Shown one piece after another: positions 3,088 through 39,029 of a stretch of 64,000 nt of DNA. The notes beneath the pieces were generated by a model. The model was not told the origin of the DNA. It saw nothing but the letters and a program-made list of their open reading frames with translations, and made no database searches. The stretch comes from an uncultured bacterium (GTDB taxonomy: Bacteria; Patescibacteriota; Minisyncoccia; Phycocordibacterales; GWA1-40-21): NCBI GenBank assembly GCA_963804975.1, contig CAWDSG010000001.1, forward strand, positions 118 to 64,117, in the 5' to 3' direction. The translations under genes were made by a program, and so were the position numbers. The first letter of the stretch is position 1. Every line of letters begins with the position of its first letter.

Positions 3088-3089
3088 CA

Positions 3090-8482: not shown

Positions 8483-8968
8483 TTAAGCTGTTTTTGTTTT
8501 TGTGATTGCATCCAATACGACCGTAAATCTCTGAATCGGTGAATTGATAAGATTGACGAACTGCGCATAAAGCGTTTTCTGCGAAGGAATAGCCGCAATT
8601 GCGGTCATTTCTTCCACTGTCATATATTTCCCTTCAAAAATACCTCCGACAATTTTTACATTATCATTGTATTTTTTCTGAAAAGCGTAGAATTCTCTGG
8701 CTGGAGCCGTGAGGTCTTCGCCATAAACTATGGCAAGTTCTCCGACAAATTCCGGCATTGTGCCTGCGATTTTCGCGTTATTAAGCGCAATTTTGGCAAG
8801 AGTTTTCCTCGTTACCAGATATCCCACGCCTTCTTTTCTCAAAGCTTTTCTCATCGCCTGGTCATCCGCGACATTCAGGTTGTGAAAGTTCGCAAATACG
8901 ACCGATTTTGAACTTTTGATTGCTTTTCCAATTTCTTCAACTAATTCTTTTTTCTTTGCTTTTGTCAT
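8483..8968 (-). CDS. rplJ: 50S ribosomal protein L10
   Basis: 161 aa; L10 family sequence, adjacent to rplL. Confidence 0.88.
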   Translation of the reverse strand: MTKAKKKELVEEIGKAIKSSKSVVFANFHNLNVADDQAMRKALRKEGVGYLVTRKTLAKIALNNAKIAGTMPEFVGELAIVYGEDLTAPAREFYAFQKKYNDNVKIVGGIFEGKYMTVEEMTAIAAIPSQKTLYAQFVNLINSPIQRFTVVLDAITKTKTA

Positions 8969-8978
8969 TGATTTTTAA

Positions 8979-9089
8979 TGAATGAAGTGAATATTAAAAT
9001 CATGACCCTGTGAAATATTTTGCTTCAGCAAAATGAAAATTTAAAAATTTTCTATTTCACGGGGTGTAGAAATTATTGTCGCTTCGCTC
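8979..9089. repeat. Family-1 intergenic element in rplJ leader (outer IR GAATGAAGTGAAT..TTGTCGCTTCGCTC; inner hairpin CCCTGTGAAATATTTTGC..ATTTCACGGGG)
   Basis: nested inverted repeats read directly; 4 close copies plus 1 variant in window. Confidence 0.65.
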
Positions 9090-9269
9090 TGTAATTTCTA
9101 ACATCGACCTTGTAAATCAAGGCCTCTAAACATAGAGTGTGACCTCGACCAGATTTACGGCTTTCGCCACTGGTTGTCTTTGGCCTTAATATGGTTATAT
9201 TAGCAGAAAATAAAAAAAAGTAAAGAATAAAAAAACCGCCTATAAAAGCGCGGTTTTTAAAAAACCAAA

Positions 9270-9988: not shown

Positions 9989-10840
9989 TTATTTCTCTCC
10001 CTTCGCCTTACCCACCTTGCGTCTTGAAACAATTAAATAATTTGAATATTTTTTGGGAGTTCTTGATTTCTGGCCTTTGCCGACATGCTTTCCCCACTTG
10101 GTCTTTGCAAATCTCATGCCTCTTCCGGATTTTCCTTCTCCTCCGCCGTACGGGTGATCCATCGGATTCATAACAGAACCTCTGACTGTCGGTCTGATGC
10201 CGAGATGCCTTGATCTTCCCGCTTTTCCGATGCTCACGAGCCAATTTTCATCGTTTGAAACGCTGCCGATTGATGCCCATGCGTTTTCCGGAACTTTTCT
10301 GACTTCGCTTGAAGGCATTTTTATATGGACATATCCGGCGTCATTTGCCACGATTTGTCCGAAGCTTCCTGCTGACCTTACAAGTTTTGCTCCGCCGCCG
10401 ACTTTGATTTCAACATTGTAAACAAAAGTACCAACCGGAATATTTTTCAAAAGAGTCCTGTTCCCCGCTTTCACTTCCGCTTTATCGGAAACCAAAAACG
10501 TATCGCCGACTTTCATTGATTTCGGCAAAAGGACATATCTTTTTTCTCCATCGGCATAATTCACAAGCCCGATGAATCCGGTTCTGTATGGATCGTATTC
10601 AACTGTCATTATTTTTGCAGGAATATTTTTCTTGTCATATGTAAAATCAATGTCTCTGAAAACCTTTTTGTTCCCGGAACCCTGATGTCTCATTGTGATT
10701 CTGCCTTTGTTGTTCCTTCCGGCATTGTTCTTTTTCCCTTTGGTCAGCGCTTTCAGCGGCCTTGACGCGGTCAAAACTCCCCTGTATGTGACAGTGGACA
10801 TATTCCTTCTTGATGGCGATGTTGGTCTGTAAAATTTCAT
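9989..10840 (-). CDS. rplB: 50S ribosomal protein L2
   Basis: 283 aa; conserved C-terminal GGGEGK..G..R region. Confidence 0.95.
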   Translation of the reverse strand: MKFYRPTSPSRRNMSTVTYRGVLTASRPLKALTKGKKNNAGRNNKGRITMRHQGSGNKKVFRDIDFTYDKKNIPAKIMTVEYDPYRTGFIGLVNYADGEKRYVLLPKSMKVGDTFLVSDKAEVKAGNRTLLKNIPVGTFVYNVEIKVGGGAKLVRSAGSFGQIVANDAGYVHIKMPSSEVRKVPENAWASIGSVSNDENWLVSIGKAGRSRHLGIRPTVRGSVMNPMDHPYGGGEGKSGRGMRFAKTKWGKHVGKGQKSRTPKKYSNYLIVSRRKVGKAKGEK

Positions 10841-10851
10841 AATTGATTTTA

Positions 10852-11151
10852 TTAAATGAATGCGATTTTATCCCCCTTTTTCAAAAATACAAGCGCTTTT
10901 TTGATGGCTGGTTTTATTCCTTTTTTCCCTCTTTTAATGACATTTTTTGCCGGAAGCGTGATCATATTCACTTTTATCGGAGTGACTTTGTAAATCTGCT
11001 TGATTGCTTCCGCTACGGTCTTTTTTGTTGCGCTTGGCAGCACTTCAAAAGTATACATATTTTGCGATTCGGACTTGATGCCGGATTTTTCCGTGACTTT
11101 CGGCTTTTTTATAACCGAAGCGGTATTATATTTCGGAATTATGTTTGTCAT
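10852..11151 (-). CDS. rplW: 50S ribosomal protein L23
   Basis: 99 aa; L23 family, position between rplD and rplB. Confidence 0.85.
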   Translation of the reverse strand: MTNIIPKYNTASVIKKPKVTEKSGIKSESQNMYTFEVLPSATKKTVAEAIKQIYKVTPIKVNMITLPAKNVIKRGKKGIKPAIKKALVFLKKGDKIAFI

Positions 11152-11156
11152 GGCGA

Positions 11157-11951
11157 TTATTTGGCTTTGGCCATCTTATTTTCGATAAATTTGATTGACT
11201 CGGCCGGATTTTCAATGACGATATATTTCATATTCAACAGATCGACAGGATTCATATTCCTGATTTCATCGACTCTGACATTCCCGATGTTCGCAAAACT
11301 TTTTTCAAAGGCGATTTTCTTGCCGGATGTGGCTATGATCGCGCTCGACTTTTTCTTGGTCAGAATATCCGAGCATGTCTTGATTTTGCTCAATGACTTC
11401 AGTATTTCAAGCGCTTCGGTCGTTTTCGGCTTGGCAATCTCAAATTTATCCACAAAAATAACTTCTCCATCCCTCATCTTTTTTGAAAGAATTGTATAGA
11501 GCGCCTTTATTTTCATTTTCTTGTTTATCTTCTTGCTGTAATTTTTCAATGCGTTCGGACCATGAGTAATGCCTCCGCCAACCCAGATTGGCGAACGAAT
11601 GGAGCCGTGTCTTGCCCGACCAGTGCCTTTTTGCTGCCAAGGTTTTTTACCTCCGCCCCTTACTTCTCCTCTGCCTTTTGTATGGGCGTAAATAACTCTT
11701 CTGTCAGCAAGCATTGAGAAAACAACCTGATGCACAAGGTCGGCATTTGGAGTCAGGCCGAAAACATTCGCCGGCAATTTTACTTCTCCGACTTCCTTTC
11801 CTTTTTGGTCATAAACTTTGGCTGTCGAAGGAATTTTCTGAGAAACTTTTTCGGTTTTTTCTGCTTTTTTCGGTTCAGTTTTAACCGCAACCTTCTCCGG
11901 CGCTTTTTTTACAACTTTTTTTGCATTCTTTTTTATAATCTCTTTTTCCAT
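11157..11951 (-). CDS. rplD: 50S ribosomal protein L4 with Lys-rich N-terminal extension
   Basis: 264 aa; GKKPWQQKGTGRARHGSIRSPIWVGGG signature. Confidence 0.9.
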   Translation of the reverse strand: MEKEIIKKNAKKVVKKAPEKVAVKTEPKKAEKTEKVSQKIPSTAKVYDQKGKEVGEVKLPANVFGLTPNADLVHQVVFSMLADRRVIYAHTKGRGEVRGGGKKPWQQKGTGRARHGSIRSPIWVGGGITHGPNALKNYSKKINKKMKIKALYTILSKKMRDGEVIFVDKFEIAKPKTTEALEILKSLSKIKTCSDILTKKKSSAIIATSGKKIAFEKSFANIGNVRVDEIRNMNPVDLLNMKYIVIENPAESIKFIENKMAKAK

Positions 11952-11968
11952 AATAATATATGTAAATT

Positions 11969-12574
11969 TTATCCGCGCACCTCAACGAGCGTTCCTCTCC
12001 TTCCCGGAACCGCGCCGCTTATCAAAAGCTGACTATTTGCCTCGTCAACTCCAAGAATTTTAAGATTTTTTATGGTAACTCTTTCGCCGCCCATCCTTCC
12101 GGCCATTCTCATTCCTTTCGGAACCATATTTCTCAGACCTCCGCTGATGGAACCCGGAGCGTTTTCGGAATGCTTCTGTCCGTGGCTTCTCGGCTGGCCT
12201 TCGAATCCGTGCCTTTTGATGACGCTCTGGTATCCTTTTCCTTTTGAAACAGCGGAAACTTCGATTATGTCCCCAACCGCAAATCCGGAAAAATCTATTT
12301 TATCCCCGACTTTGAATTTTGAAATATCTTCAACTCTGAATTCTTTCATAAATCTCGCATTTACGCCTTTCAGATGGCCTTTCAATGGCTTGTTTATATT
12401 TTTTTCTTTTTTCAGGCCAAAACCGACTTGCAACGCGTCGTAGCCGTCTTTTTCTTTTGTTTTTATCTGAGTCACGGTTAAAGGGCCTGCCGAAAGAATC
12501 GTAACAGGATGCACCTTTCCGTTCTCATCGAAAATCTGGGTCATATTCTGCTTTGTACCGAGTATAAATTTCAT
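11969..12574 (-). CDS. rplC: 50S ribosomal protein L3
   Basis: 201 aa; MKFILGTKQNMTQIFDENG start and L3 core. Confidence 0.92.
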   Translation of the reverse strand: MKFILGTKQNMTQIFDENGKVHPVTILSAGPLTVTQIKTKEKDGYDALQVGFGLKKEKNINKPLKGHLKGVNARFMKEFRVEDISKFKVGDKIDFSGFAVGDIIEVSAVSKGKGYQSVIKRHGFEGQPRSHGQKHSENAPGSISGGLRNMVPKGMRMAGRMGGERVTIKNLKILGVDEANSQLLISGAVPGRRGTLVEVRG

Positions 12575-12587
12575 TTAATTTTCTTTT

Positions 12588-12697
12588 CGAGCGAAGCGAG
12601 TATTGGAAAATTTAACCCTGTGAAATATTTTGCATTAGCAAAATAAAATCTGAAAGATTTTTATTTCACGGGGTAAAAAATTATAATCGCTACGCTC
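12588..12697. repeat. Family-1 intergenic element between rpsJ and rplC
   Basis: CGAGCGAAGCGAG ... CCCTGTGAAATATTTTGCATTAGCAAAATAAA..ATTTCACGGGG ... TTATAATCGCTACGCTC. Confidence 0.65.
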
Positions 12698-12706
12698 TTT
12701 AATTTT

Positions 12707-13099
12707 TTAGTTCATTTTCACATCAATGTTCACACCTGAAGGCAAACTCATGTTGGTGAGAGCTTCAATCACTTTTGCCGACGGATTTATAATATCTATC
12801 AATCTTCTGTGTATCCTCATCTCAAATTGTTCTCGCGCATTTTTGTAGACGAATGACGCACGATTGACCGTGTATTTTTTGATTTCCGTCGGAAGCGGCA
12901 CCGGACCGATGACTTTTGCGTCATGGCGGAGCGCCGTCTCGATAATCTGCTTCACTGAAGCGTCAAGGATTTTGCTGTCGTAAGCCCTGACGCGTATTCT
13001 TAATATTGAAGAACTTTCGATCTTCGCTGGCATTTTCGGCATTTTCACCTTTGATGCGGCCGCTGTTTTCGTATTCTTTTTTATTGCTGTTTTTTCCAT
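12707..13099 (-). CDS. rpsJ: 30S ribosomal protein S10 (true start probably internal Met around 13033-13042)
   Basis: ILRIRVRAYDSKILD... S10 core; N-terminal 20-30 aa of ORF likely leader. Confidence 0.88.
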   Translation of the reverse strand: MEKTAIKKNTKTAAASKVKMPKMPAKIESSSILRIRVRAYDSKILDASVKQIIETALRHDAKVIGPVPLPTEIKKYTVNRASFVYKNAREQFEMRIHRRLIDIINPSAKVIEALTNMSLPSGVNIDVKMN

Positions 13100-13107
13100 T
13101 AATTTTT

Positions 13108-13220
13108 AACGAACGAAGTAACTATAAAAATTATGACTCTGTGAAATATTTTGCATTAGCAAAATAAATTTTTTCAAAAATTTATTTCACGGGATTTAAT
13201 AAAATATAGTCGCTGTGCTC
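13108..13220. repeat. Family-1 intergenic element between tuf and rpsJ
   Basis: GAACGAAGTAACTAT ... GACTCTGTGAAATATTTTGCATTAGCAAAATAAA..ATTTCACGGGA ... ATAGTCGCTGTGCTC. Confidence 0.65.
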
Positions 13221-13229
13221 CTTATTTTA

Positions 13230-14432
13230 TTAAGCAATAACTTTCGTTATAACGCCCGAACCTACGGTCTTTCCTCCTTCCCTGAAAGCAAATCTCATTT
13301 TGTCTTCAAGAGCAATCGGAGCAACGAGCTTTACTTTGAATGTAACCGTATCTCCCGGCATAACCATTTCAACTCCTGATGGAAGAGTAACATCTCCCGT
13401 AACATCTGTCGTCCTCATGTAGAACTGCGGTTTGTAGCCTGTAAAGAACGGCGTGTGCCTTCCGCCTTCCTCTTTCTTCAAAACGTAAACTTCCGCTTCA
13501 AATTCAATGTGAGGAGTGACTGTTCCCGGCTTTGCCAAGACCTGTCCTCTGTGGACATCCTCTTTCTTCGTACCTCTAAGCAAAACTCCGGCATTGTCTC
13601 CTGCATCTACGGTTTGCAGCTGTTTATTGAACATTTCGATACCGGTAATAACTGTTTTTGTTGTTGGTTTTATGCCGACAATTTCAACTTCGTCTCCGAT
13701 TTTTGATCTTCCTCTCTCGACTCTTCCCGTAACAACAGTTCCTCTTCCTTCGATTGAAAAGATGTCTTCTATAGGCATAAGGAATGGCTTATCAATATCT
13801 CGGGTTGGAAGCGGAATATATGTATCAAGAGCGTCCAAAAGTTCAGTAATGCATTTTGCATCAGGATCATCCGCGCTTTTGCAAGCCAAAGCTTTCGTGG
13901 CTGAACCTTTGATAATCGGGGCATTTGCTCCGTCAAAACCATATTTTGTAAGAAGTTCTCTGACCTCCGTTTCAACAAGATCCAAAAGATCTTTGTCGCT
14001 TACAAGATCGCATTTGTTCAAAAATACGACTATTCTCGGAACACCAACCTGCTTTGCCAAAAGAATGTGCTCTCTCGTCTGAGGCATAGGGCCGTCAACT
14101 GCAGACACGACAAGGATAGCGCCGTCCATTTGAGCGGCACCGGTAATCATGTTTTTGACGTAGTCAGCGTGACCAGGACAATCTACGTGCGCGTAGTGCC
14201 TTTTGTCCGTTGAGTATTCAACGTGAGAAATAGCAATAGTGATGATTTTTGAAGCATCTCTTCTGCCGGCCGATTCCGATGCTTTCGCAACCTGATCGTA
14301 TCCGACGGGCTTTGCAAGGCCTTTGAGGGATTGAATGTATGTGATAGCCGCTGTTAAAGTTGTCTTGCCATGGTCAATGTGACCAATGGTACCGACGTTT
14401 ATGTGCGGCTTGTCTCTTTTAAATTCTGCCAT
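13230..14432 (-). CDS. tuf: Elongation factor Tu
   Basis: 400 aa; [21 protein letters not shown] motifs. Confidence 0.97.
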
Positions 14433-14515: not shown

Positions 14516-14566
14516 TCCAGCACCTTCTTTTGGTTTTTTAAAAAACCAAAAGAAGGTGCTGGACTG
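14516..14566. repeat. 51-bp perfect palindrome (CCAGCACCTTCTTTTGGTTTTTTaaaaAAAACCAAAAGAAGGTGCTGG) in tuf-fusA spacer
   Basis: exact self-complementarity read directly. Confidence 0.6.
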
Positions 14567-14810
14567 GAAAGCTTATAAATTACGACTCGCAATTTTCGCG
14601 CAATAAAAATCTGCAAAAACAGATAATTAATTCCGCCAAAAACAGCGGAATAAGCACTCAAACGCGTACCGCTGATAATAGCAAAAGAATAAACGGGCGT
14701 CAACTGAATAAATGTTGGCTATTTTACACATACAAAAAAGGGTTTTTGTCCTAAAAAATCGGACAAAAACCCTGCTATTTTCGTTTTAATTTATTTTTTA
14801 TTTCTGAAAA

Positions 14811-14987
14811 AAATCGACAAAAGACAAAACCATCTTATCTATCAACATAGCTAATGCCGTTATTGGAATCAGAATAACAGAAAGTGGCCAAAAAAACTCA
14901 CCAATAACAATAAAAGTACCGGACCACATTTTTTTAAAAAAAGAACTTTTGGGAACGACTTCCGTTTGGTTTTCCATTTCAAATCCT
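14811..14987 (-). CDS. Small (58 aa) single-TM protein, below ORF-track size cutoff; GAGGA RBS 7 nt upstream of ATG
   Basis: translated by hand from reverse strand: MENQTEVVPKSSFFKKMWSGTFIVIGEFFWPLSVILIPITALAMLIDKMVLSFVDFFQK; located downstream of fusA. Confidence 0.35.
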
Positions 14988-15048
14988 CGATTCTGACGAA
15001 TTTATTTTCTAAATTTATATTAATATTATGGCGAAATATTGTCAATCA

Positions 15049-15083
15049 AAAAAGCGGGGCGCCTTCGGCGCCCCGCTTTTTTG
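15049..15083. terminator. Rho-independent terminator downstream of fusA
   Basis: aaaaaGCGGGGCGCCttcGGCGCCCCGCtttttt. Confidence 0.7.
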
Positions 15084-15106
15084 TTTTTATTTTATAATTT
15101 TCAACT

Positions 15107-17271
15107 TTAAACTCTTTGAGTTGTAACTCCGCGTGTTTCAATAATAGTTTTAGCCACATTTGGTGGGACGATTTCATAATGATCAAATTCCATAATCACG
15201 GATGCTCTGCCTTCGGTAAGAGATCTCAAAGTAGTGACATAGCCGAACATTTCGGCAAGCGGAACCATCGCTTTTATGACTTTATTCATTCCTCTGTCAA
15301 ACATTTCCGTTATCTGGCCTCTTCGCGAATTGATGCTTCCCGACACGTCTCCCATAAATTTTTCCGGAGTGACAACTTCTACTTTCATCATCGGCTCAAG
15401 AAGTACCGGTCGTGCCCTTTTTGCGGCGTCCTGAAACGCCATTGAAGCGGCAATCTTGTAAGCAAGTTCGGATGAGTCAACATCGTGATACGAACCGTAC
15501 GTGAGTTCGCAGGAAACATTTACCACCCTGTATCCGGCAAGAATTCCCCTTTCCATCGCCTCTCGGACGCCTTTCTCAACTGCCGGAATAAATTCCTGCG
15601 GAATGACGCCTCCTTTGATTGAATTGATAAATTCAAAATCATCATATCTCTCGACATTCTTGGGAATTTTTGCGCCTTCTTCAAGTTTCTCCATCGGCTT
15701 GATTTTGATAAGCACGTGGCCATACTGGCCTTTTCCTCCGGATTGTTTGATGTATTTTTCTTCTTTTTCCGCCTCGCCGGTGATTGTTTCTTTGTAAGCA
15801 ACCTGCGGTTTGCCGACGTTCGCTTCCACGCCGAATTCTCTTTTCATCCTATCCACAAGAATTTCAAGATGAAGTTCTCCCATACCCGCCATAACCGTCT
15901 CGCCCGTCTCCTGATCGGATTTTATCTTGAATGTCGGATCTTCGTCCGAAAGTTTTTTCAAAGCCAGTCCCATTTTTTCCTGGTCGGCTTTTGTTTTCGG
16001 TTCAATTCTTAAAGTGATAACCGGTTCAGGAAAAATAATTTTATCCAAAAGTATCGGATGGTCTTCATCGCAGAGTGTATGGCTTGTTTTTGCGTTTTTA
16101 AGGCCGACAGCCGCCGCGATTTCTCCGGCAAAAACCGTTTCAACGTCTTCCCTGTCGTTTGCGTGCATTCTGACAACTCTGCCAAGGCGCTCCTTTTCTC
16201 CCGTCGTTGAATTGTAAATGTAAGTGCCGGCTGAAATAGTTCCGGAATAAACTCTGAAATATGTAAGCTGGCCGACAAAAGGATCGTTTTGAAGTTTGAA
16301 GGCAAGGGCGCAGAAGGGCTCCGTCATCGGATGCATGCCTGAAAATTTCTTCGCCTGTTCTCGGATCAATTCCTTTTACCGGCGGAATATCAAGAGGAGA
16401 AGGAAGATAATCCACGACAGCGTCAAGAACCAGCTGAACCCCTTTGTTTTTCAGAGCCGAGCCGGTAAAAACAGGGACTATCGTGTTTGCGATTGTCGCT
16501 TTTCTTAAAACAACTTTCAGTTCATCAACCGGAATTTCTTTTCCTTCCAAATAATCGTTCATGAGCTTTTCGTCGTTCTCGGCGATTTTTTCGACAAGCT
16601 CTGAACGGTATTTTTTTGCCTCCGCCAAAAGATTTGCCGGAATTTCCTCTTGCCTCACTTTGTCGCCCATTTCTCCGTCAAAATAAAATGCCTTCATCGT
16701 CATCAAATCCACAAGGCCTTTGAAATCAGATTCTGCGCCGATAGGAATCTGCATTCTGACCGCATATTTTGTCAGCCGCTCCAAAATTGACTGATATGAT
16801 CTTTCAAAACTTCCTCCTGTCCTGTCCAGTTTGTTTATAAAACAGATTCTTGGAACTTTTCCTTCATCGGCATATCTCCAGTTTGTTTCCGATTGCGGTT
16901 CAACTCCGGCAACACCGTCAAAAACAACGACAGCGCCGTCAAGAACTCGCAGAGATCTTTTTACCTCCGCGGTAAAATCAATATGGCCAGGCGTATCAAT
17001 AATATTAAATCTGACTTTTTTGCTCGTATCCTCTTTCGGCATATATGTCGGATTCCAAAAACAGGTGATGGCGGCGGAAGTGATGGTGATTCCTCTTTCT
17101 CTTTCCTGCTCCATCCAGTCGGTCGTGGTATTTCCGGTCGTGGACTTCGCCGATTTTGTGCTGGGTGCCTGTGTAATATAAAATTCTTTCGGACACGGTT
17201 GTTTTTCCCGCATCAATGTGGGCAATAATTCCGAAGTTCCTGACTTTTTCCAGTGGATAATCGCGTTTCAT
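15107..17271 (-). pseudogene. fusA: Elongation factor G interrupted by two +1 single-nucleotide insertions (three ORF pieces: 17005-17283, 16140-17225, 15107-16369)
   Basis: N-terminus [29 protein letters not shown] shifts frame at gaCCgga (about 17150); second shift at gacgGag (about 16335) between RHASDD and [10 protein letters not shown]; removing one C and one G restores a canonical ~720 aa EF-G. Confidence 0.8.
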
Positions 17272-17276
17272 AATTT

Positions 17277-17747
17277 TTACCACGCAAAATGCGCAAATGC
17301 TTTGTTGGCTTCGGCCATTTTGTGGACATTTTCTTTTTTCTTCACCGCATCGCCCTCGTTTTTTGAAGCGGCAATTATTTCATTCGCCAATTTTTCCGCT
17401 ATCGGCGCGCCTTTTTTCGTCCTGGCGGCTTCCACGATCCATTTCATGGAAAGCGCGGAGCGTCTTGCCGGCCTGACTTCAACAGGCACCTGATAATTCG
17501 CGCCTCCGACTCTTTTTGACCGGACTTCCATGTTCGGAGCGGTGTTTGAAAGGGCAAGCTCGAAAATTTCAACGGGATTTTTGACTTTCGCTTTTTCCTT
17601 TATCAATTCTAAAGTTCTGTAGATATTTTTCTCGGCTACGCTTTTTTTGCCGTCATACATTATATAATTTATAAGCTTTGAAATTTTTTCAGAACTGTAT
17701 TTATAATCCGGTTTCGGCGCTTTTTTTGTTTTTATTTTTCTTCTCAT
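17277..17747 (-). CDS. rpsG: 30S ribosomal protein S7 (start at MRRKIKTKK)
   Basis: [13 protein letters not shown]...; C-terminal S7 core. Confidence 0.9.
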
Positions 17748-17762
17748 GACTAATTTTATTAT

Positions 17763-17849
17763 GAGCAAAGCGAATTTTAAAATTGTCACCCTGTGAAATA
17801 TTTGAATTCTTATTTCACGGGGTTAATAAATTATTCTCACTTCGTTCGT
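17763..17849. repeat. Family-1 intergenic element (shorter copy) between rpsL and rpsG
   Basis: GAGCAAAGCGAATTTT ... CACCCTGTGAAATATTTGAATTCTTATTTCACGGGG ... TTCTCACTTCGTTCG. Confidence 0.6.
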
Positions 17850-17853
17850 TAAT

Positions 17854-18270
17854 TTATTTAACCGGTTTCGGCTTTTTCGCGCCATATTGGCTGCGGCCTT
17901 TTTTTCTTCCTTCCACTCCTGTGGCATCAAGAACCCCTCTTACAATTTGATATCTTAAGCCGACATCCTTGACTCTTCCGCCGCGAAGCAGAACAACCGA
18001 GTGTTCTTGGAGAGTATGTCCCATTCCCGGAATATAAGCTGTGACTTCCATTCCGTTTGAAAGGCGCACTCTTGCGATTTTTCTGATAGCGGAGTTCGGT
18101 TTTTTCGGTGTCTTTGTGGTGACTTTCACGCATACGCCTCTTTTGAAAGGAGAATTCAGTTTGGTCGGCCTGTTTTCAAGAATATTAAAACCCTTCATCA
18201 GAGCGACTGATTTTGGTTTTCTTTTCGCCGTCTTCCTGTTTTGTTTTATTAATTGATTTATTGTAGGCAT
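17854..18270 (-). CDS. rpsL: 30S ribosomal protein S12 (start MPTINQL)
   Basis: [16 protein letters not shown]...; canonical S12. Confidence 0.95.
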
Positions 18271-18494
18271 AAAAAATTTATAGGATTTAAAAAACATTCC
18301 CACCAAAGGTGAAAATGCAACTCTGATACTAGCATCGAGCTATGGACGCTAATGTCGCGATTATACTAATATAAATGGTCAAAAATAGCAATATGGCTAG
18401 TATTAATACATTTGACATATTATTTTTTGTGGCTAGAATGAAAAATAGTAAAAGTTGTACGTTGTAATATCATCAGAAAAAGGGGGCAGTAAAA

Positions 18495-19379
18495 ATGCTT
18501 AAACATCTTGGAAAAGTTTTTGAGCTTCCACTGAAAAAAATCCGCCGGGATAAGAACCAGCCAAGAAAATATTTTGATCGAATCAAAATGGAGAATTTGA
18601 CCATGAGCATCAAAAAAATCGGACAAATAACTCCTATCCAAGTAAAAGTAATTAAAGGTGGCTGGCAAATCGTTACCGGGGAAAGAAGATTTCGTGCTTG
18701 CACTAAGCTAAGACAAAAAACAATAAAAGCATATATCGTCGAGGGAAATGAAGACGACTTTGATGATGCTCAGATCGTCGAAAATTTACTTCACGAGAAT
18801 CTTTCTACCCTTGAAACAGCTCGTATATATTTAAAAAGAAAAGAAAAAGGGCTTACTGAACAGGAAATTGCAGAAAGGTATGGAACATCACAATCAACTG
18901 TGCATCAATATATTTCACTGAATAAGCTTGATCCGAAAGTTCAACGCTTGATGGAGGAAGGAACGAACATTCCGGAAAAAAACAGGATAAAATTCAGCAC
19001 TGCTTTAACACTTGTTTCTTTCCCGCTGGATGTTCAAGTTAAGCTTGCCACACAAATAAGCGAAAATGGTATGACTCTCGCTGACGCAAGGAATCTGATC
19101 GTTCAAACGCTTCAGAAAAGAGGAGTTGTTCCGAATGTTGTCAGAAAGAAAAACCGAGGAAAAGAATACTCTTTCCTTTTTGGTTTTATTTCGCCAGTAC
19201 TTCAACGCCTTGAGATTCTTATCGGGTCAAAAGTCAGCTATATAACCGATACTTTAAGCATAGTTGATCCGCAAAAAAGAAATGGTCTCCTCAAAATGAT
19301 CGGGAAATGCAAGAAACATTTCGGTCAAGTAGAGAAGATGGTGGAAAAAATTCTGAGAGAGGTTGCAAAAAAGAAATAG
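18495..19379 (+). CDS. ParB/Spo0J-like nuclease-domain DNA-binding protein
   Basis: 294 aa; ParB N-domain GERRFRA, HTH EIAERYGTSQSTVHQYISL. Confidence 0.7.
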   Translation: MLKHLGKVFELPLKKIRRDKNQPRKYFDRIKMENLTMSIKKIGQITPIQVKVIKGGWQIVTGERRFRACTKLRQKTIKAYIVEGNEDDFDDAQIVENLLHENLSTLETARIYLKRKEKGLTEQEIAERYGTSQSTVHQYISLNKLDPKVQRLMEEGTNIPEKNRIKFSTALTLVSFPLDVQVKLATQISENGMTLADARNLIVQTLQKRGVVPNVVRKKNRGKEYSFLFGFISPVLQRLEILIGSKVSYITDTLSIVDPQKRNGLLKMIGKCKKHFGQVEKMVEKILREVAKKK

Positions 19380-19392
19380 TACTTGCTTTATG

Positions 19393-19432
19393 TAAAAAGG
19401 CCGCGGTGTGTGACACATCGCGGCCTGTTTTT
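19393..19432. terminator. Bidirectional terminator (AAAAAGGCCGCGGTGTGTGACACATCGCGGCCTGTTTTTT)
   Basis: hairpin + U-tract read directly. Confidence 0.6.
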
Positions 19433-19439
19433 TATCCTC

Positions 19440-19826
19440 CTATTCAATTTTCACATTAGGCATAACCTTTTCAAAATGCTTTTGCAATTTTTCAACTTCT
19501 TCCCTCAATTCTTCATCTTGAGAAAGAAACTCTTCAAAAAGATCCGAATCCGAGTTCCCTGTCATTTTTCTCCTGATGCTTTTGGGAATATATGAGACGA
19601 TTACTCCAGAAGACTTGGTTACATCTTTAATCATAATATATTCGGCAACGCATTTTGCCCAATCAACAACTTGACTGGTTTTTTTGTTGTTTCTGATATC
19701 CTCCGGTTTAATTTCATAAGCAAAAGCAATAAAATCAATTACCGCAAGTAGAGGGCGATCAGCAAAAGATGCAGGTGGTTTCCAATCAACAAAAGCCGGA
19801 GAACACCAAATTTTGGCAGTTTCCAT
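19440..19826 (-). CDS. Hypothetical protein
   Basis: 128 aa ORF, no motif recognised. Confidence 0.35.
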   Translation of the reverse strand: METAKIWCSPAFVDWKPPASFADRPLLAVIDFIAFAYEIKPEDIRNNKKTSQVVDWAKCVAEYIMIKDVTKSSGVIVSYIPKSIRRKMTGNSDSDLFEEFLSQDEELREEVEKLQKHFEKVMPNVKIE

Positions 19827-19902
19827 GATTACCTCCTTGTGAACTTAAATTTCTAGTTTGATATTAGAATAAACTAAAAAAAATGTAAAGTTAAATACTT
19901 TT

Positions 19903-20547
19903 TTAAATTCCAAGTCCTGTAATCAAAGTAAACACCGAAGTAATAAGCGGCATTAGGATTCCGGGCAAAAAAGCGACAATCAATATTATTATCAGAATGC
20001 CATACCTTTCCGCAAACTGCGAAAAAATAAATCTGTTGCCGACGGGAAGAATGGAAAAAAGAATTTTTGAGCCGTCAAGCGGAGGAATGGGAATAAGATT
20101 GAAAATCGCCAAACTTACATTTACAAAAACCACAAAACTAAAAATCAAAACTAAGGGGCCTGCCTGGCCGGTAGGCAGGCTTGGAGATGCGCCGATTGAA
20201 ACCAGAATTCTTATGATTATTCCGAAAATCAAAGCTACGACAAGATTTGAAAGCGGACCGGCAAAAGCCACAAGCGGTTCCGCAAGTTTTCTATTCCTTA
20301 AATTATAAATATTGTAAGGCACCGGTTTCGCCCAACCGATCATAAAACCAACATTTGTTATATATAAAATAAAAGGCAAGATGATTGAACCGAACCAGTC
20401 AATATGCTTGAGCGGATTTAAAGTCAATCTGCCGGCATATTCTGCGGTTTTATCGCCAAAATAAAGAGCCATAAAACCGTGTGAGATTTCATGTATCATC
20501 ACCGAAAAAATAAGTATGATTAGCTGAAAAATAACATTTGTATTCAT
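19903..20547 (-). CDS. Site-2 protease family (peptidase M50) membrane metalloprotease
   Basis: 214 aa; HEISHG zinc motif in TM helix, LDGSKIL motif. Confidence 0.75.
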   Translation of the reverse strand: MNTNVIFQLIILIFSVMIHEISHGFMALYFGDKTAEYAGRLTLNPLKHIDWFGSIILPFILYITNVGFMIGWAKPVPYNIYNLRNRKLAEPLVAFAGPLSNLVVALIFGIIIRILVSIGASPSLPTGQAGPLVLIFSFVVFVNVSLAIFNLIPIPPLDGSKILFSILPVGNRFIFSQFAERYGILIIILIVAFLPGILMPLITSVFTLITGLGI

Positions 20548-20604
20548 ATATTGCTTTTTTATTGCCTTATGATAGCATACAGGGACTGAATTTTAAATTT
20601 TATT

Positions 20605-20844
20605 ATGAAAACTTGTCCAATATCAAAAAGAAAATCAATTGGCGGCGGCGGATATTCCAACAGAACCCGTGCTACTAAGTTTAACCCTACCGGCAAAGTA
20701 ACAAAAAATCTCAATCTTCAAAAGAAAAGAATTTACATTCCAGAGCTTAAAAAAACAATTATTTTAAACATCTCAACAAGAGCTCTTAAAACAATCCATA
20801 AAAACGGCGCTTTTGCCACATTGAAAAAAGCCGGAATTATTTAA
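20605..20844 (+). CDS. rpmB: 50S ribosomal protein L28
   Basis: 79 aa; MKTCPISKRKSIGGGGYSNRTRATKFNPTGK pattern. Confidence 0.7.
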   Translation: MKTCPISKRKSIGGGGYSNRTRATKFNPTGKVTKNLNLQKKRIYIPELKKTIILNISTRALKTIHKNGAFATLKKAGII

Positions 20845-20856
20845 AAAATAAAATTA

Positions 20857-20897
20857 TAAAAGCCGAGCCGCTTATGCGGCTCGGCTTTTATTTATTT
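20857..20897 (+). terminator. Rho-independent terminator after rpmB
   Basis: AAAAGCCGAGCCGCttatGCGGCTCGGCTTTTATTT. Confidence 0.7.
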
Positions 20898-20922
20898 CTA
20901 AATATATCGATTCTCAAACAAA

Positions 20923-21366
20923 TTATTTATTTGTTGTCGAAGGAGTTGAAGTTGCCGGATTCTGCATGATAACCGGGCCGACATTTACAATCACATTTCT
21001 GCTTGGAGAATAGACGATTGCTTTTGCCGCTTTCTGATAGACAAGCACGACATCGCCATTGATTGCGCCGGTATAAAACGCTTGCTGTTTGATAAGGGTT
21101 GAGGCATCATTGATTGTTGCGACAACAGGATTTTCTCCTTTAGGAAGAATGACAAGTTTGCCGACTTTTACTATAAGATCTTTTACTTGGGCTTGGCTCG
21201 TTTGGCTTACCACATCTTGCGCGTTTTTTGCAGTAAAATGATTCCATGCCCAAAGACCTCCGATACCAATAATGATTCCAATAATGAGTCCGATAAAAAC
21301 AGAACTTCCGCCTTTTTTTACTTCATTTTCCATTTGTTTGATTGCTCCGGCTTTAAAACGAAGCAA
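20923..21366 (-). CDS. Hypothetical membrane-anchored protein
   Basis: 147 aa, one N-terminal TM helix. Confidence 0.35.
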   Translation of the reverse strand: MLRFKAGAIKQMENEVKKGGSSVFIGLIIGIIIGIGGLWAWNHFTAKNAQDVVSQTSQAQVKDLIVKVGKLVILPKGENPVVATINDASTLIKQQAFYTGAINGDVVLVYQKAAKAIVYSPSRNVIVNVGPVIMQNPATSTPSTTNK

Positions 21367-21478
21367 ATAATTAAACTAATAATAACAAGCTTTAATGAGC
21401 TTTGTGGAATTTATTATACAGATAATTAAAAAATCAAGCAATATAAGCTGTGGATTATTTAATAAACCAGTTTTTTAT

Positions 21479-22330
21479 TTATATTTTATCTATATTTTGG
21501 CCATCAGATATAAAAACAATGTCTCCGCTTGATGTTTCAAGCACTGTGCTTTTTACGCCGGCAAGTAAATCGAGAGTTTCCTTACCCGGGTATCCGTATT
21601 TATTATTTTTATCAACCGCAATGACGGAAAATTGAGGGGAAACAGCGGAAAGAAACATATCGGAAAGATAATTTTTTGCGCCTGAATGCGAAACGAGAAA
21701 AACTGCGCTTTTTAGTTTGTCGGAAAAAATACTTGTGATGTAATTTTCAATATTTTCCGAAACAGTATCAGGCACGATTAAATAATTCTTCTTTCCATAA
21801 GTGATTTGCGCGACAATATAATTATTTTCATTTTTTTGATCATTAACATAAAGAACATGAAGATATGCACCGGCTCCGAGATCCACTTTGCTTCCTGATT
21901 GCACGAAATTTGTTTTTATTTTTTTTTCTGTGATTTCTTTTTTTATTTCTTTATATGCTTCCCCGCCGTTTTCATTTTCGCTGCCGATATAAGCGCCGAC
22001 TTTGTAATATTTCAAAACTTCCGGCATTCCGCCGATGGAGGCCTGGTCATTATCAATTGCAATGAGAGCGTCAATATTTCTGTCGTAAAACGGCATGACT
22101 CTGCCAAGCGCCCGCAGGATTGAAATATTGCTTCCGGCATTTATTAAAATTTGATTTCCGTTCGGCGTTCTTATAAATACAGCATTGCCGTCTCCAACAT
22201 CGAGAAAAACAACTTTAAAAAGATTGTTGTTTCCATTTCCCGCGATATAAAAAATAAATATAGCGATAAAAATAAATCCGATGATGATTCCTGCGCCGTA
22301 TTTCTTAAAATCCATGTTTTTTATTTTCAT
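21479..22330 (-). CDS. ComEC-associated metallo-beta-lactamase-domain protein (separate MBL module)
   Basis: 283 aa, N-terminal TM, VVFLDVGDGNAVFI and SHSGAKNY histidine motifs; immediately downstream of comEC. Confidence 0.55.
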   Translation of the reverse strand: MKIKNMDFKKYGAGIIIGFIFIAIFIFYIAGNGNNNLFKVVFLDVGDGNAVFIRTPNGNQILINAGSNISILRALGRVMPFYDRNIDALIAIDNDQASIGGMPEVLKYYKVGAYIGSENENGGEAYKEIKKEITEKKIKTNFVQSGSKVDLGAGAYLHVLYVNDQKNENNYIVAQITYGKKNYLIVPDTVSENIENYITSIFSDKLKSAVFLVSHSGAKNYLSDMFLSAVSPQFSVIAVDKNNKYGYPGKETLDLLAGVKSTVLETSSGDIVFISDGQNIDKI

Positions 22331-23951
22331 TATTAAGATTTATTTTTCTTTCATGAAAAATCCAAATTGCGATAAGCGCATACGCGATAAACGTAAAGGT
22401 TGGCGAAAACCACGGAATAAAAACTGAGGAAAACGGCAAATTAGCAAAGAATTCAGCAACATGAATCATATAAAAAAGAAAAATGAACGTAATCCAGGCA
22501 AACGGTATGGATAATAATGCCCAAATGAAACCGAGCATTCCCGTGACAAATCCAAAAAACATCACTGCCGGCACGAATGCCAGTACGAGGATATTCGCGG
22601 GCAAAGCGAAAAACGAAAGCATCCCCATTTTGCAAAGTATGAGAGGCAGAACCAGAATCTGCGCGGAAATAGTCGATGAAACTATATCGCGCAAGCCGTA
22701 TTTTTCGGTAATCCACGAAAATTTATTCTTCAAAATCGGCGCAACATAAATGATCGCCACTGTCGCAACGAAGCTGAGCTCGAATGATATGTCAAAAACC
22801 AATATTTTCGGATTTACCAAAATCATCGCCAGTGCCGCAACAATAAGAGCTCTGCCTACCCGATAATTCCTTCTGGTCATCTGGGACAAAATGACAATGA
22901 GCGCCATGATGCCGGCGCGAATAGCCGTGGAAGAAGAGCCGGACATGATTACAAATAAAATAATTCCGATGATTCCGGTGGAAAGGCCGGCCATTTTCGG
23001 CAAAAAAGAAAGCGCCCGCATAATTGCTCCGGCGACAATGGTAATGTTGTATCCGGAAAGCGCGACGATATGCGACAATCCGGAAATGCGGAACGCATTG
23101 CTTGTTGCCTTGTCTATGGAACTTTTTGCGCCAAGCTCTATTCCTTCAAAAAGTGACGCTTCCGGTTCGGGAATGACGCGGCTGATATTTTCGATAAAGC
23201 CGTTTTTTATTTTATACAAGATTGTTTTTATAAAATTGCCGTGTCCGGAAGAAATAAGCGATACTTTTGCAAAATCAATGGTGTAAAAAATATTGTCTTT
23301 CGCAAGATATGAAACATAATCAAAATCTTTTGTGGCCGGAGAACTTGAGGAATCAATATTTGGCGATGAAGAGAAATTTTTGGGTTTTTCTAATTTGCCG
23401 TATATGCTCACTTTGTCACCGTATTTAAATTCCGGATAAAGGCCGGTGTTCACAAGCGCCTTGCCTGAAACAGGAATGCTTGAACCGGCGCTTATAAAAA
23501 TTTTTAGATCGACATCAAGTGCCGTTCCGGATTCTTTTTTCTGCGGTTCATCTGAAATAATTGCAACAAAAGTCGCCTCCTTGCCGACTGAATTTTCCAA
23601 AAGCACATCGGGAAGATTTGAATCCGCAATCCCGTAGCGCAAAGCGCCAAAAGCAAAAAACAGTAAAAATAAGAGCAGCAAAAATATTTTTCTTTTCTCC
23701 GTATGTTCGGAAACATAAAATTTCTGAAAGACAAAAAGGATGATTGATATTGAAATCAAGCATGCGGAAAAATAAAAATCCAGCTTGAAAAATGAGCAAA
23801 TAAAAATCGCCAGAACAAATCCGGCAATTGAAACAAAAAGAGCGGAATTATTTTTCACCAAGTCATTGTAGCATAAAAAAATTCCCTTCGCGCCAAAAAA
23901 TCGGCGCGAAGGGAAAAATGATCCGTCAGTTTGGAGAAAGAATTCTTTCAT
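22305..23951 (-). CDS. comEC: DNA internalisation competence protein ComEC/Rec2 (DUF4131 + competence domain)
   Basis: 548 aa polytopic membrane protein with ComEC competence-domain signature (LSGYNITIVAG...). Confidence 0.75.
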   Translation of the reverse strand: MKEFFLQTDGSFFPSRRFFGAKGIFLCYNDLVKNNSALFVSIAGFVLAIFICSFFKLDFYFSACLISISIILFVFQKFYVSEHTEKRKIFLLLLFLLFFAFGALRYGIADSNLPDVLLENSVGKEATFVAIISDEPQKKESGTALDVDLKIFISAGSSIPVSGKALVNTGLYPEFKYGDKVSIYGKLEKPKNFSSSPNIDSSSSPATKDFDYVSYLAKDNIFYTIDFAKVSLISSGHGNFIKTILYKIKNGFIENISRVIPEPEASLFEGIELGAKSSIDKATSNAFRISGLSHIVALSGYNITIVAGAIMRALSFLPKMAGLSTGIIGIILFVIMSGSSSTAIRAGIMALIVILSQMTRRNYRVGRALIVAALAMILVNPKILVFDISFELSFVATVAIIYVAPILKNKFSWITEKYGLRDIVSSTISAQILVLPLILCKMGMLSFFALPANILVLAFVPAVMFFGFVTGMLGFIWALLSIPFAWITFIFLFYMIHVAEFFANLPFSSVFIPWFSPTFTFIAYALIAIWIFHERKINLNNENKKHGF

Positions 23952-24453
23952 TCGAAATCTTTCCGATTCTCACGGCAATTTTGCATTGAGAGCCGCAGGA
24001 ATCTTCCCTGTACAGCTTTAAAAACAAAGTTCCTCCTTTGTCCCGCCCGATCACAAACATATGCGGGGTATTTTCCACCATGATTCCGTAGCATTCATTG
24101 ATGGACGGTTTGTGCTTCAGACAGAACTTAAGAATATCTCGATGAGAAGTAAAACCTTGGATTTGGGCGACTTTTTCCCTCAATAAATCAAGGGAAACAA
24201 ATCCTTTTAAACCAAGGTTTCGGGCGAAAAGCACACCCAGGGAAACGCTTTTCGCATCGCTTTTGGTATATTCACCATTGAGCATTTTCTCGGAGACCAG
24301 CGCGTCGATTTGCCAACCTTCAGCTTCAAGGGCTTCTATCAATTCTTTCGGACTTTTTTCATCATCATCCGAAAGCAGGTTGATATTCTTAAAGCATTTT
24401 CCTTTGACCTGAACGTTTGGCTTACCCCCATTACGAACTGCTGTCTTTGCCAT
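23926..24453 (-). CDS. Hypothetical protein
   Basis: 175 aa ORF upstream of comEC, no motif. Confidence 0.35.
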   Translation of the reverse strand: MAKTAVRNGGKPNVQVKGKCFKNINLLSDDDEKSPKELIEALEAEGWQIDALVSEKMLNGEYTKSDAKSVSLGVLFARNLGLKGFVSLDLLREKVAQIQGFTSHRDILKFCLKHKPSINECYGIMVENTPHMFVIGRDKGGTLFLKLYREDSCGSQCKIAVRIGKISNERILSPN

Positions 24454-24639
24454 AAAAACCTTCCTTATTTTTAAATTTTTAAGCTAACCTTTTTAAAGGT
24501 CGGCTTTCCACCGATCAAAAACACAATTACAGCAAAAAATTTCCAAATGAATCAGAAATTTTTTGCCGTAATCGTATAAAAAGGCGGATAATATAAAAAG
24601 AACAAACTGTCAGGAATGATATAACTTATATTTTATTTG

Positions 24640-25137
24640 TCAAATATTTTTTATTCCATAGTCAGCGATTTTTCCGCAAAAAAGCCTGGGGAATTTCCCA
24701 TAGGCAAATGAGGTTGCGATTTCATCGCATCGCTCGTTGCCGGCAATTCCTGCGTGGCCGGCGACATGATTCCATATTATATTTTTGCCTTTCGACGCTT
24801 CCATCAATTCTTCCCAAAGATCGCGGTTCAGCACCGGTTTTTTTGCGGAATTTTTCCAATTATTTTTCCGCCAGCCATAAATCCACTTTGTTATTCCGTT
24901 TATCAAATATGAGGAATCTGTGTTTAAAATTATTTCTCCGAAACTTTTCCCCACAAATTGCAAAGCTTTTATGGCGCCCGTGAGTTCCATTCTGTTATTT
25001 GTCGTATATTTTTTAGCACCGCCTATCTCCACAACACTTCCATCAGGCATTGAAACAATCGCTCCCCAGCCGCCGGGACCGGGATTGCCGCTTGATGAGC
25101 CGTCGGAAAAAATAATAATTTTGGAAATATTTTCCAT
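24640..25137 (-). CDS. rnhA: Ribonuclease HI
   Basis: 165 aa; DGSSSGNPGPGGWGAIV, TNNRMEL, HAGIAGNERCDEIA catalytic residues. Confidence 0.88.
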   Translation of the reverse strand: MENISKIIIFSDGSSSGNPGPGGWGAIVSMPDGSVVEIGGAKKYTTNNRMELTGAIKALQFVGKSFGEIILNTDSSYLINGITKWIYGWRKNNWKNSAKKPVLNRDLWEELMEASKGKNIIWNHVAGHAGIAGNERCDEIATSFAYGKFPRLFCGKIADYGIKNI

Positions 25138-25148
25138 ATATGGTATTT

Positions 25149-25263
25149 AAAGCGAGCGAGACAATGCGATTTTGATGGCTACGGAGCGCGACGGCGCGAG
25201 TATCGAGCAAATTTCCAGCAGGAAATTATGCGTACCTCAAAATCGCATTGCCGAGCGAGCTTT
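25149..25263. repeat. Family-2 intergenic element between cupin gene and rnhA
   Basis: AAGCGAGCGAGacaatgcgattttga ... GGAGCGCGACGGCGCGAG ... tcaaaatcgcattgCCGAGCGAGCTTT. Confidence 0.65.
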
Positions 25264-25711: not shown

Positions 25712-25924
25712 ATGCCTATGGAACAGGATATTTTGAAAAAACTCGCCGAACAGGAAGAAAAAATAGAAAAAATCTATATTTCCGTGGAAAAAACAAGGAA
25801 ATATTTTCTCTGGACAATGATTATCACAATTGTAGTAATCGTCGTGCCGATAATTGGATTGTTTTTCGCTATTCCGTCATTTTTGAACAATTATGTGGGA
25901 AATATTCAGAATTTAAGCCAATAA
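25712..25924 (+). CDS. Small membrane protein
   Basis: 70 aa, one TM helix. Confidence 0.3.
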   Translation: MPMEQDILKKLAEQEEKIEKIYISVEKTRKYFLWTMIITIVVIVVPIIGLFFAIPSFLNNYVGNIQNLSQ

Positions 25925-25943
25925 AAAAATAAATTTTAAAATA

Positions 25944-27029
25944 TTAATTAATAAGATTTTCTAATTCTATTGGAATATCGACTAAACCTTTGTTTTTTAG
26001 AATATGAGTAACACCGTATATAACTGAACCACTTAATAAACAAATTGTTTTTTCCATATCTGCAGACATTCCTTCAATACTATTGCCTTGGAAATTGATC
26101 GGAAATCCATTATTCACAAAAATAACGTTTTTATTTACCACATCTTTATGTATTTCTTTATCTTTTCTAAAATCTGCAACGGGAAATTCTCTATCGGCTG
26201 ATGAAACGCTTATAAGATATAACTGTTTATTTAGAGAAGAAATTTTTTCAATATCTTTTTTGAGCAATACCGGGAAACCTGTAGCCCCTATAATAACATC
26301 TGGTTTTATATTTAAAATATTTTTAATTAAATTATTATGACCGTATTTAACATCAAATCCTTGGATTTTAAAATCATTTTGCTCTAATATTTTTTGCATT
26401 GCTTCCCCTATCGGCCCAAGACCGACTACAAATATTGATGGATTTTTTATATTTTTAACTTGAAAATAATTCTTAATTTTTTCAAAACAATCACGAGCAA
26501 TAAACGGGCTTTCCTGAATCAATTTTGTCTCGGATCTTGCAACATTTACAACAGGAAAATTCATTTTTTTATTCTCAATTTTTCTGAAGCCTGACGATGT
26601 TTGTTCAACGGCAAACAAGACATCTCTTTTATTATCAGCAAAAGTCATTATAAGTTCTGCCCCATCATCCAAAATAACGATTTTTTTATCTTTAGGCACG
26701 AGATCGAGTATCATATTACAGTTGTTTTTATGTTCAATATCAAAAGCTTTGCCGGAAAATTCAGGCTGGAAAACTTTTATGCCTTTATCTTTTAGTTCTT
26801 TTAAAATACTGGTATTTGTTGAGTATATTTTTCCTAAAACAATTATTTTGTTCGGATTAAAGCCAAAATCCACCAAATATTCAAACATTTTTAATTGCGG
26901 TTCAAGTAAATGTTGGCAACAAACTAGATAATAATCGTTCACATCATGAGGAATATTTTTGAAATAACCAAATACTTTTTGTAATAATGGATAATTGTAG
27001 TCCATATTTGACAAGTATATCAGATACAA
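25944..27029 (-). CDS. NAD(P)-binding Rossmann-fold protein of unknown function
   Basis: 361 aa; VVGLGPIGEAMQKIL dinucleotide-binding motif. Confidence 0.4.
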   Translation of the reverse strand: MYLIYLSNMDYNYPLLQKVFGYFKNIPHDVNDYYLVCCQHLLEPQLKMFEYLVDFGFNPNKIIVLGKIYSTNTSILKELKDKGIKVFQPEFSGKAFDIEHKNNCNMILDLVPKDKKIVILDDGAELIMTFADNKRDVLFAVEQTSSGFRKIENKKMNFPVVNVARSETKLIQESPFIARDCFEKIKNYFQVKNIKNPSIFVVGLGPIGEAMQKILEQNDFKIQGFDVKYGHNNLIKNILNIKPDVIIGATGFPVLLKKDIEKISSLNKQLYLISVSSADREFPVADFRKDKEIHKDVVNKNVIFVNNGFPINFQGNSIEGMSADMEKTICLLSGSVIYGVTHILKNKGLVDIPIELENLIN

Positions 27030-27052
27030 AACTTTTGTGATATTATGTCATT

Positions 27053-27799
27053 ATGGCATTAACAAAAAACCAGATAAAACTCATAAAATCCCTTCATGAA
27101 AAGAAAAATCGCAATAAAACGGGGCTTTTTTTGGTGGAAGGGGAAAAAAGCGTCGCGGAACTTCTGGTTTCAAATTTTGAAATTGACTTCCTGCTTGTAA
27201 CGGATGAGTTTTTCAAAAAACATTCCGATTTGATAAAAAAGAGATCTGCAAAATATGAGATTGCAAACCAGGAACAAATTGAAAAAATCGGAACATTGGA
27301 AACAAACGATTCCGCGCTCGCCATAGCTAGGCAGAAAAACAACACTTTCACCAAAATTGGAAGCGATGAAGTGATGATAGCTCTTGAAAAAATCCAAGAT
27401 CCGGGAAATCTCGGCACAATTATAAGAATTGCCGATTGGTATGGGATAAAAAATATTGTCGCATCAAAAAATACCGTTGATTTTTACAATCCGAAAGTTA
27501 TTGCCGCTTCAATGGGCTCATTCACAAGAGTAAATGTTTTTTACGAAGATCTGAAAGAATTCTTGTCAAAAATAAATACACCGATTTGGGGAGCGTTTTT
27601 GCACGGAGAAAATATCCATAAAGCAAGTTTCCCAAAAAGCGGAATTCTCCTTATGGGAAACGAATCAAACGGCATAAGCAAAGATTTGGAAAAATTAATT
27701 ACCAGAAAAATCACCATCCCTTCATTCGGCCACGCTGAATCGCTCAATGTCGCCATCGCAACAGCGGTGATATTGGATAATTGGAAAAATAAAATATAA
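27053..27799 (+). CDS. SpoU/TrmH-family RNA 2-prime-O-methyltransferase
   Basis: 248 aa; DPGNLGTIIRIADWYG, LMGNESNGIS, SLNVAIATAV motifs. Confidence 0.8.
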   Translation: MALTKNQIKLIKSLHEKKNRNKTGLFLVEGEKSVAELLVSNFEIDFLLVTDEFFKKHSDLIKKRSAKYEIANQEQIEKIGTLETNDSALAIARQKNNTFTKIGSDEVMIALEKIQDPGNLGTIIRIADWYGIKNIVASKNTVDFYNPKVIAASMGSFTRVNVFYEDLKEFLSKINTPIWGAFLHGENIHKASFPKSGILLMGNESNGISKDLEKLITRKITIPSFGHAESLNVAIATAVILDNWKNKI

Positions 27800-27842
27800 A
27801 AACCCCGGTTTGCCGTAAAAACAAACTCGGGGTTTAAAAAAT
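27800..27842. terminator. Rho-independent terminator
   Basis: AAAAACCCCGGTTTGCCGTAAAAACAAACTCGGGGTTTAAAAAA. Confidence 0.55.
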
Positions 27843-27853
27843 TTGGCAATGAA

Positions 27854-33546: not shown

Positions 33547-33658
33547 ATTGATTTTATACCTACCTTTTGATACCTTTATCTTACAGCAAAGAGCTCATAT
33601 CTCCAAGAAGTCGCCTGTGGATTAAGCCCTTAAAATTACAATTAACCAAAAATTACAA

Positions 33659-36320: not shown

Positions 36321-36322
36321 TT

Positions 36323-39025: not shown

Positions 39026-39029
39026 AATT

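Follow-up and report, generated by a model that had tools for sequence, protein, structure and literature searches.

The window analysed here is a 64,000-nt (64-kb) stretch, with a G+C content of 38.6%, of a contig deposited for an uncultured bacterium of the Patescibacteriota (CAWDSG010000001.1). Its minus strand carries rpsL, rpsG, fusA and tuf in the usual str-operon order and context, with rpsJ beyond them (Table 1). The fusA gene, which encodes the elongation factor EF-G, lies there in three pieces in three minus-strand frames, each later piece being displaced by +1 relative to the preceding one, and these pieces tile the NCBIfam EF-G equivalog profile TIGR00484 (profile positions 1-46, 41-308 and 305-689 of 691), each single piece scoring below the profile's cutoff on its own. 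When one base is deleted at each of the two junctions the window sequence gives a 720-aa open reading frame with no other stop. The initial annotation, which had been made from the sequence alone, was therefore right that the fusA frame is broken by two +1 single-base insertions, and its statement that neither lies in a long homopolymer also holds, the contexts being cacGACCgga and gatGACGgag. It had the place of the junctions approximately, near 17150 and 16335, but the true sites are about 13 nt away from these figures, and it gave the upper limit of the gene as 17283, where there is a GTG; the true start is the ATG at 17271, as in all homologues. The closest EF-G relatives bear names that point to a Patescibacteria (Paceibacteria/Minisyncoccia-like) source. 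A direct repeat of 150 nt (71% identity between its copies), the sole repeat of at least 80 nt in the window, has its second copy between tuf and rpsJ.

Table 1. Features of the window, in window coordinates, and the places where it was compared with Logan contigs of run ERR10755942.
Feature	Position	Strand	Remarks
tRNA-Ile	3014..3088	+	anticodon UAU
Direct repeat, 150 nt	8948..9097 and 13079..13228		71% identity
L086 match	13781..10797		2,985 nt, 100% identical; 3' half of tuf, S10, L3, L4, L23
rpsJ	13099..12707	-	beyond tuf
tuf (EF-Tu)	13230..14432	-	downstream of fusA; intact; 3' half matches L086 exactly
fusA (EF-G)	15107..17271	-	complete span including stop codon; two +1 shifts inside
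fusA piece 3	15107..16321	-	codons 317-720 (16321..15110) plus stop; frame A+2; tblastn q317-720 at 100%
Tract with all seven window-L081 differences	15806..17260	-	1,455 nt; 5 SNPs and two insertions
Junction 2	16322..16325	-	GACG, against ACG (Thr316) in L081; extra base most likely G at 16325
fusA piece 2	16326..17135	-	codons 46-315 (46-315/316 at 17135..16323); DTPGH, NKLD and SALKNKG motifs; frame A+1; tblastn
Junction 1	17136..17139	-	GACC, against ACC (Thr45) in L081; extra base most likely G at 17139
fusA piece 1	17137..17271	-	codons 1-45; P-loop AHIDAGKT; frame A; tblastn q1-45
rpsG (S7)	17277..17747	-	directly upstream of fusA; same sequence in both assemblies
rpsL	about 18270..17854	-	operon member
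L081 match	21033..14534		99.9% identical; encodes intact EF-G
L082 match	25206..21007		4,200 nt, 100% identical
L084 match	28329..25784		2,546 nt, 100% identical
N6/N4 DNA methylase pseudogene	31988..33312	-	at least 5 frame hops
HTH_17 excisionase-like ORF	33331..33594	-	beside methylase pseudogene
Apparent integrative element	35689..42159		DUF5659 protein, Toprim/primase-like gene, large serine recombinase
L083 match	35689..42112		four sets of differences
Toprim gene, ORFs in window	36841..38463 and 38441..39025		540 and 194 aa
SNP	38222		window against L083
One-base insertion	38444	+	extra A (ttgAagc against ttg-agc); breaks Toprim-domain gene in window
Serine recombinase	40445..42118		3' end overlaps tRNA-His
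C/T difference and adjoining T absent from window	40581..40583	+	window intact, L083 stops early
Shifted dinucleotide	41771..41772	+	AC in window, CT in L083; inside recombinase gene
tRNA-His(GUG)	42086..42159		opposite strand to recombinase
PilM and PilN	45662..47216	-	type IV pilus; 194-nt overlap
Putative prophage remnant	55048..58191	+	methylase-domain, HTH and terminase-like ORFs

Several other features of the window were recorded. The 194-nt overlap between the type IV pilus genes for PilM and PilN, which had looked like a further frameshift, arises simply because the PilN frame stays open upstream of its gene, and these are two intact adjacent genes. The apparent integrative element includes a large serine recombinase gene whose 3' end overlaps a tRNA-His gene on the opposite strand. 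A possible prophage remnant on the plus strand (55048..58191) comprises a second ORF with an N6_N4 methylase domain, which matches its profile in part (3-125 of 221 positions), an HTH ORF of small size, and an ORF resembling a terminase large subunit through a weak match to Terminase_6C. The tRNA-Ile gene has a UAU anticodon; AUA is usually read in bacteria by a lysidine-modified CAU anticodon, and UAU is uncommon.

The window was compared with five read-derived Logan contigs from run ERR10755942 (L081, L082, L083, L084 and L086). A protein search with the repaired window sequence found an uninterrupted 720-aa EF-G (P0001), to which the repaired window protein is identical at 718 of 720 residues and which scores 1053.7 bits against TIGR00484 (cutoff 659.4) over profile positions 1-689 of 691. 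The precomputed Pfam set for EF-G comprises GTP_EFTU, GTP_EFTU_D2, EFG_III, EFG_IV and EFG_C, and the GTPase motifs are intact. As judged from the equivalog score of P0001, the motifs, this five-domain architecture and the str-operon context, the repaired window gene is EF-G. P0001 is encoded by L081 (6,498 bp), which differs from the window by five mismatches and two one-base gaps, every one of them within fusA. A 31-mer enters a Logan contig only if the reads of a single accession contain it two or more times (PMC12424806), and the intact fusA allele is therefore backed by reads. Three of the other four contigs are 100% identical to the window where they align with it, which indicates that both assemblies sample the same population; identical copies in Logan were also found, through the protein collection, for six of seven further window proteins. 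The initial annotation had listed consensus or assembly indels among its options, and this one is now well supported by a read-derived assembly of the same population in which the frame is uninterrupted. It had also held that an uninterrupted frame in the reads would turn the matter from biology into one of quality; the independent Logan assembly comes close to that comparison.

An uninterrupted fusA is also the rule among relatives. It gives a single uninterrupted HSP in all 80 related genomic loci, and related EF-G proteins are 713-723 aa long with none interrupted (120 proteins among the matches listed). The frameshifted middle product of the window gene (P0121) forms a singleton cluster from one contig only, the window's source, which has 64,446 bp in NCBI and ENA. 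Long match spans had suggested intein or intron insertions in the fusA genes of some relatives, and these proved to be weak matches to tuf downstream.

The window alone cannot place the extra base within each 4-mer, so the alignment with L081 was used, and it sets a G before AC at both sites: the L081 codons read cac ACC gga and gat ACG gag, that is, Thr45 and Thr316. The initial annotation, which had proposed an extra C and an extra G with Asp at both sites, is thus probably wrong on this point. Of 80 relatives, 78 have D or E at residue 45, and residue 316 varies among E, D, T, K, A, S and N, with ordinary ACN codons where it is Thr; Thr occurs naturally at both sites. L085 (GCA_040384425.1), a separate species at 79% nucleotide identity, reads CAT ACC GGA at site 1; Thr45/ACC is therefore ancestral, and the window's GACC would be ACC with an inserted G. 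A scan of JGI metagenomes for either site-1 allele gave 0 matches.

The same 4-mers can be written as mergers of two alleles. Each might combine an Asp allele (GAC) with a Thr allele (ACC or ACG) of two strains, which would be a form of consensus artefact in which the aligner shows an insertion and a deletion 2 nt apart and the consensus takes the insertion alone. Both 4-mers come out exactly: CACGACCGGA is the merger of CAC-GAC-GGA and CAC-ACC-GGA, and GATGACGGAG that of GAT-GAC-GAG and GAT-ACG-GAG. The recombinase gene has a comparable shift (AC against CT) that was applied in full, and there is a published record of such errors where allelic variants lie close together (PMC8445201). The merger would, however, require two and three adjacent nucleotide differences at two codons in a gene where the strains otherwise differ by only five synonymous SNPs, and an Asp/Asp allele is absent from the protein collection among the matches listed. 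The ancestral Thr45/ACC of L085 makes a plain inserted G the reading with fewer assumptions, and on this account we keep the hybrid Asp/Thr allele only as a minor variant that we regard as quite improbable.

All five fusA SNPs between the window and L081 (17260, 17061, 16980, 15830 and 15806) are at third positions and synonymous (P = 0.0005, with 22% of random changes expected to be synonymous); each of the three pieces has some of them, and all but one are transitions. This pattern indicates real strain variation under purifying selection, and no decay. Polarised with L085, which can be compared at 79% identity only, the SNPs split 3:2 between the window and L081 alleles. The tract that holds the SNPs and both insertions contains 7 of the 13 differences between the window and the Logan contigs inside 1,455 nt (clustering P = 5.5e-6). 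There are thus two closely related haplotypes in precisely this part of fusA, and such a situation is one where consensus building is prone to fail.

The existence of a second haplotype also allows the insertions themselves to be real. One strain might truly carry two very recent one-base insertions in its operon fusA, as a non-viable or declining subpopulation or as a lineage living on a second EF-G gene elsewhere. The window fusA is in fact a distinct haplotype five SNPs away from L081 and not just a noisy version of the Logan copy, and the window has one clearly real pseudogene, the N6/N4 DNA methylase gene. But EF-G is essential for the cell, small-genome Patescibacteria usually have one copy of it, and a second fusA, which the initial annotation had considered, was not found within the 64-kb window by tblastn. 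A gene that has two separate insertions and is otherwise undamaged fits decay poorly: the substitutions are all synonymous, the motifs are intact, and a search of fusA for signs of a pseudogene or of relaxed selection (non-synonymous changes, extra stops or indels, lost motifs) found none. A consensus of the population majority should not show a dead lineage, and an intact allele is present in the same population. Recent pseudogenisation, another option of the initial annotation, is thus disfavoured, and we consider a real, very recent double mutation unlikely.

The methylase pseudogene looks like genuine decay in its sequence, in contrast to fusA. Its first frame junction reads GAA-T-GGT; it retains about 440 aa against about 600 aa in homologues, so that about 160 aa are missing, and its best identity is 92%. 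It was dropped as a control for assembly accuracy, as it is a real decayed pseudogene with no same-strain copy for comparison. An excisionase-like ORF of the HTH_17 type lies beside it.

Differences between the two assemblies are not confined to fusA. Over the 22,628 nt compared with the five Logan contigs there are nine substituted positions and four one-base indels, or 0.44 indels per substitution, which fall in two clusters, and all four indels shift a coding frame. The second cluster is in the apparent integrative element, where the window aligns with L083. The Toprim-domain, primase-like gene is intact there at 727 aa (P0130) and is divided into two ORFs in the window by an extra A. The serine recombinase gene has the opposite arrangement: the window keeps the motif YARKSS...QVQSIEDQ, and L083 (positions 4892-4895) has a frameshift and premature stop in the catalytic N-terminus. 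The broken copy is thus that of the window for fusA (twice) and for the Toprim gene, and that of Logan for the recombinase, which means that the Logan assembly is itself not error-free or uniformly intact.

We conclude, with a probability of roughly 0.8 and from sequence comparison, that the two +1 breaks in fusA are consensus errors of the deposited contig and not features of the living genome. The real gene is most likely a normal, uninterrupted 720-aa EF-G in rpsL-rpsG-fusA-tuf, with Thr45 and Thr316. An independent assembly lacks the lesions, and similar discrepancies are present elsewhere in the contig, in both directions. Such errors could have arisen if reads of two very close strains, which have their synonymous SNPs exactly in this fusA stretch, were merged into a single consensus by collapsing or polishing, a process known to leave indel and complex errors behind it. 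In assemblies from collapsed haplotypes or long reads, 98% of error-type variants were indels or complex, and nearby allelic variants led to wrong alignments and indel errors (PMC8445201). The combination seen here of indel-rich coding differences, a SNP-plus-indel and a shifted dinucleotide is typical of consensus error and not of natural divergence in coding DNA. The nearest SNP to either fusA indel is at least 78 nt away, however, and strain collapse as the mechanism is therefore something we infer and do not read from the alignment.

Some observations run against consensus error. Had the contig come from short reads through a de Bruijn assembler with no polishing step, every k-mer would have been drawn from reads and the inserted bases must occur in them, which would favour real mutation. 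Long-read errors are most frequent in homopolymers, where neither insertion lies, and although the window has about 1,600 A/T runs of at least 5 nt, hardly any further genes are broken. Of the four indels, two lie in genes of mobile elements, which are often inactivated in single strains and in which real strain-specific pseudogenes are plausible; this weakens the support that they give to a technical origin and speaks to some extent for real mutation. Finally, the two fusA insertions are alike, each being a G placed immediately 5' of a Thr codon that starts with AC, and consensus error gives no reason for this likeness.

A further reading is programmed recoding. The insertions could be real, and the ribosome could pass them at GAC-C-GGA and GAC-G-GAG, either by a +1 frameshift or by decoding four bases, with full-length EF-G as the product. 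Both sites have the common form GAC-S-G; site 1 is followed in the zero frame by CGG, which at 2.4 per 1000 is used less than any other Arg codon here, and slow decoding can promote +1 shifts; and read-through at site 1 would restore the acidic residue 45 that nearly all relatives have. The sequence GACGGAG is, however, also decoded without a shift in tuf (13934), in fusA itself at 16679 (FYFDGEMG), 354 nt upstream, and in a further two genes that are intact. GAC is unable to re-pair in the +1 frame (ACC or ACG), no SD-like or GGAGG-like run was seen upstream of either site on inspection of the sequence, and the 81 nt downstream fold no better than shuffled sequences (z = +0.6 and +0.9). There is no tRNA with an unusual anticodon loop within the window, interruption is seen in 0 of 80 genomic relatives and in none of 120 proteins among the matches listed, and an allele that can be translated without any shift is present in the same population. 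Of the attributes of a programmed +1 site (a re-pairing codon or unique heptamer, a stimulatory element, and conservation), none was found at either fusA junction. We therefore hold recoding to be very improbable and already close to refuted. If true, a candidate-phyla-radiation bacterium would have, in a translation factor that is essential, a +1 recoding event not described before, and, if the frameshifts were real, an essential factor that needs two recoding events would be remarkable.

With consensus error as the preferred reading, the broken fusA is probably a data-quality issue of low biological interest, and its consequences are practical ones. One-base consensus errors most likely split at least two genes of the deposited contig, fusA and the primase-like gene. 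Work that uses this genome for gene calling, for estimates of completeness or for marker-gene phylogeny should count this fusA as one 720-aa gene. The obvious repair, in which the conserved Asp is restored, can yield the wrong protein, as both residues are Thr in the same-population allele.

Three known systems invite comparison with the fusA locus. The prfB gene for release factor 2 has a programmed +1 frameshift, with a CUU UGA C slippery site and an upstream SD-like stimulator, that is conserved across bacteria. It shares with fusA a +1 shift within an essential translation-factor gene, but fusA has no re-pairing P-site codon, in-frame stop, SD-like element or conservation, and its heptamer is decoded normally in other places. 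In insect endosymbionts, transcriptional slippage at long poly(A) tracts rescues frameshifted genes. Here too a small-genome bacterium has a core gene that is apparently frameshifted, but, unlike such slippage-rescued genes and the pseudogenes of reduced genomes, the fusA sites have no homopolymer and no further decay, and an intact allele is present in the population. The third system is that of frameshift artefacts in consensus assemblies, and a preprint on proovframe (10.1101/2021.08.23.457338) reportedly describes artefacts of the same kind as the fusA case. The fusA insertions differ from these in lying outside homopolymers, and the case for them rests on the comparison of assemblies. The likeness is that, in consensus frameshift artefacts as in fusA, single-base indels or SNP-plus-indel changes truncate open reading frames that are otherwise perfect, arise where near-identical haplotypes merge, and are gone in an independent or phased assembly (PMC8445201).
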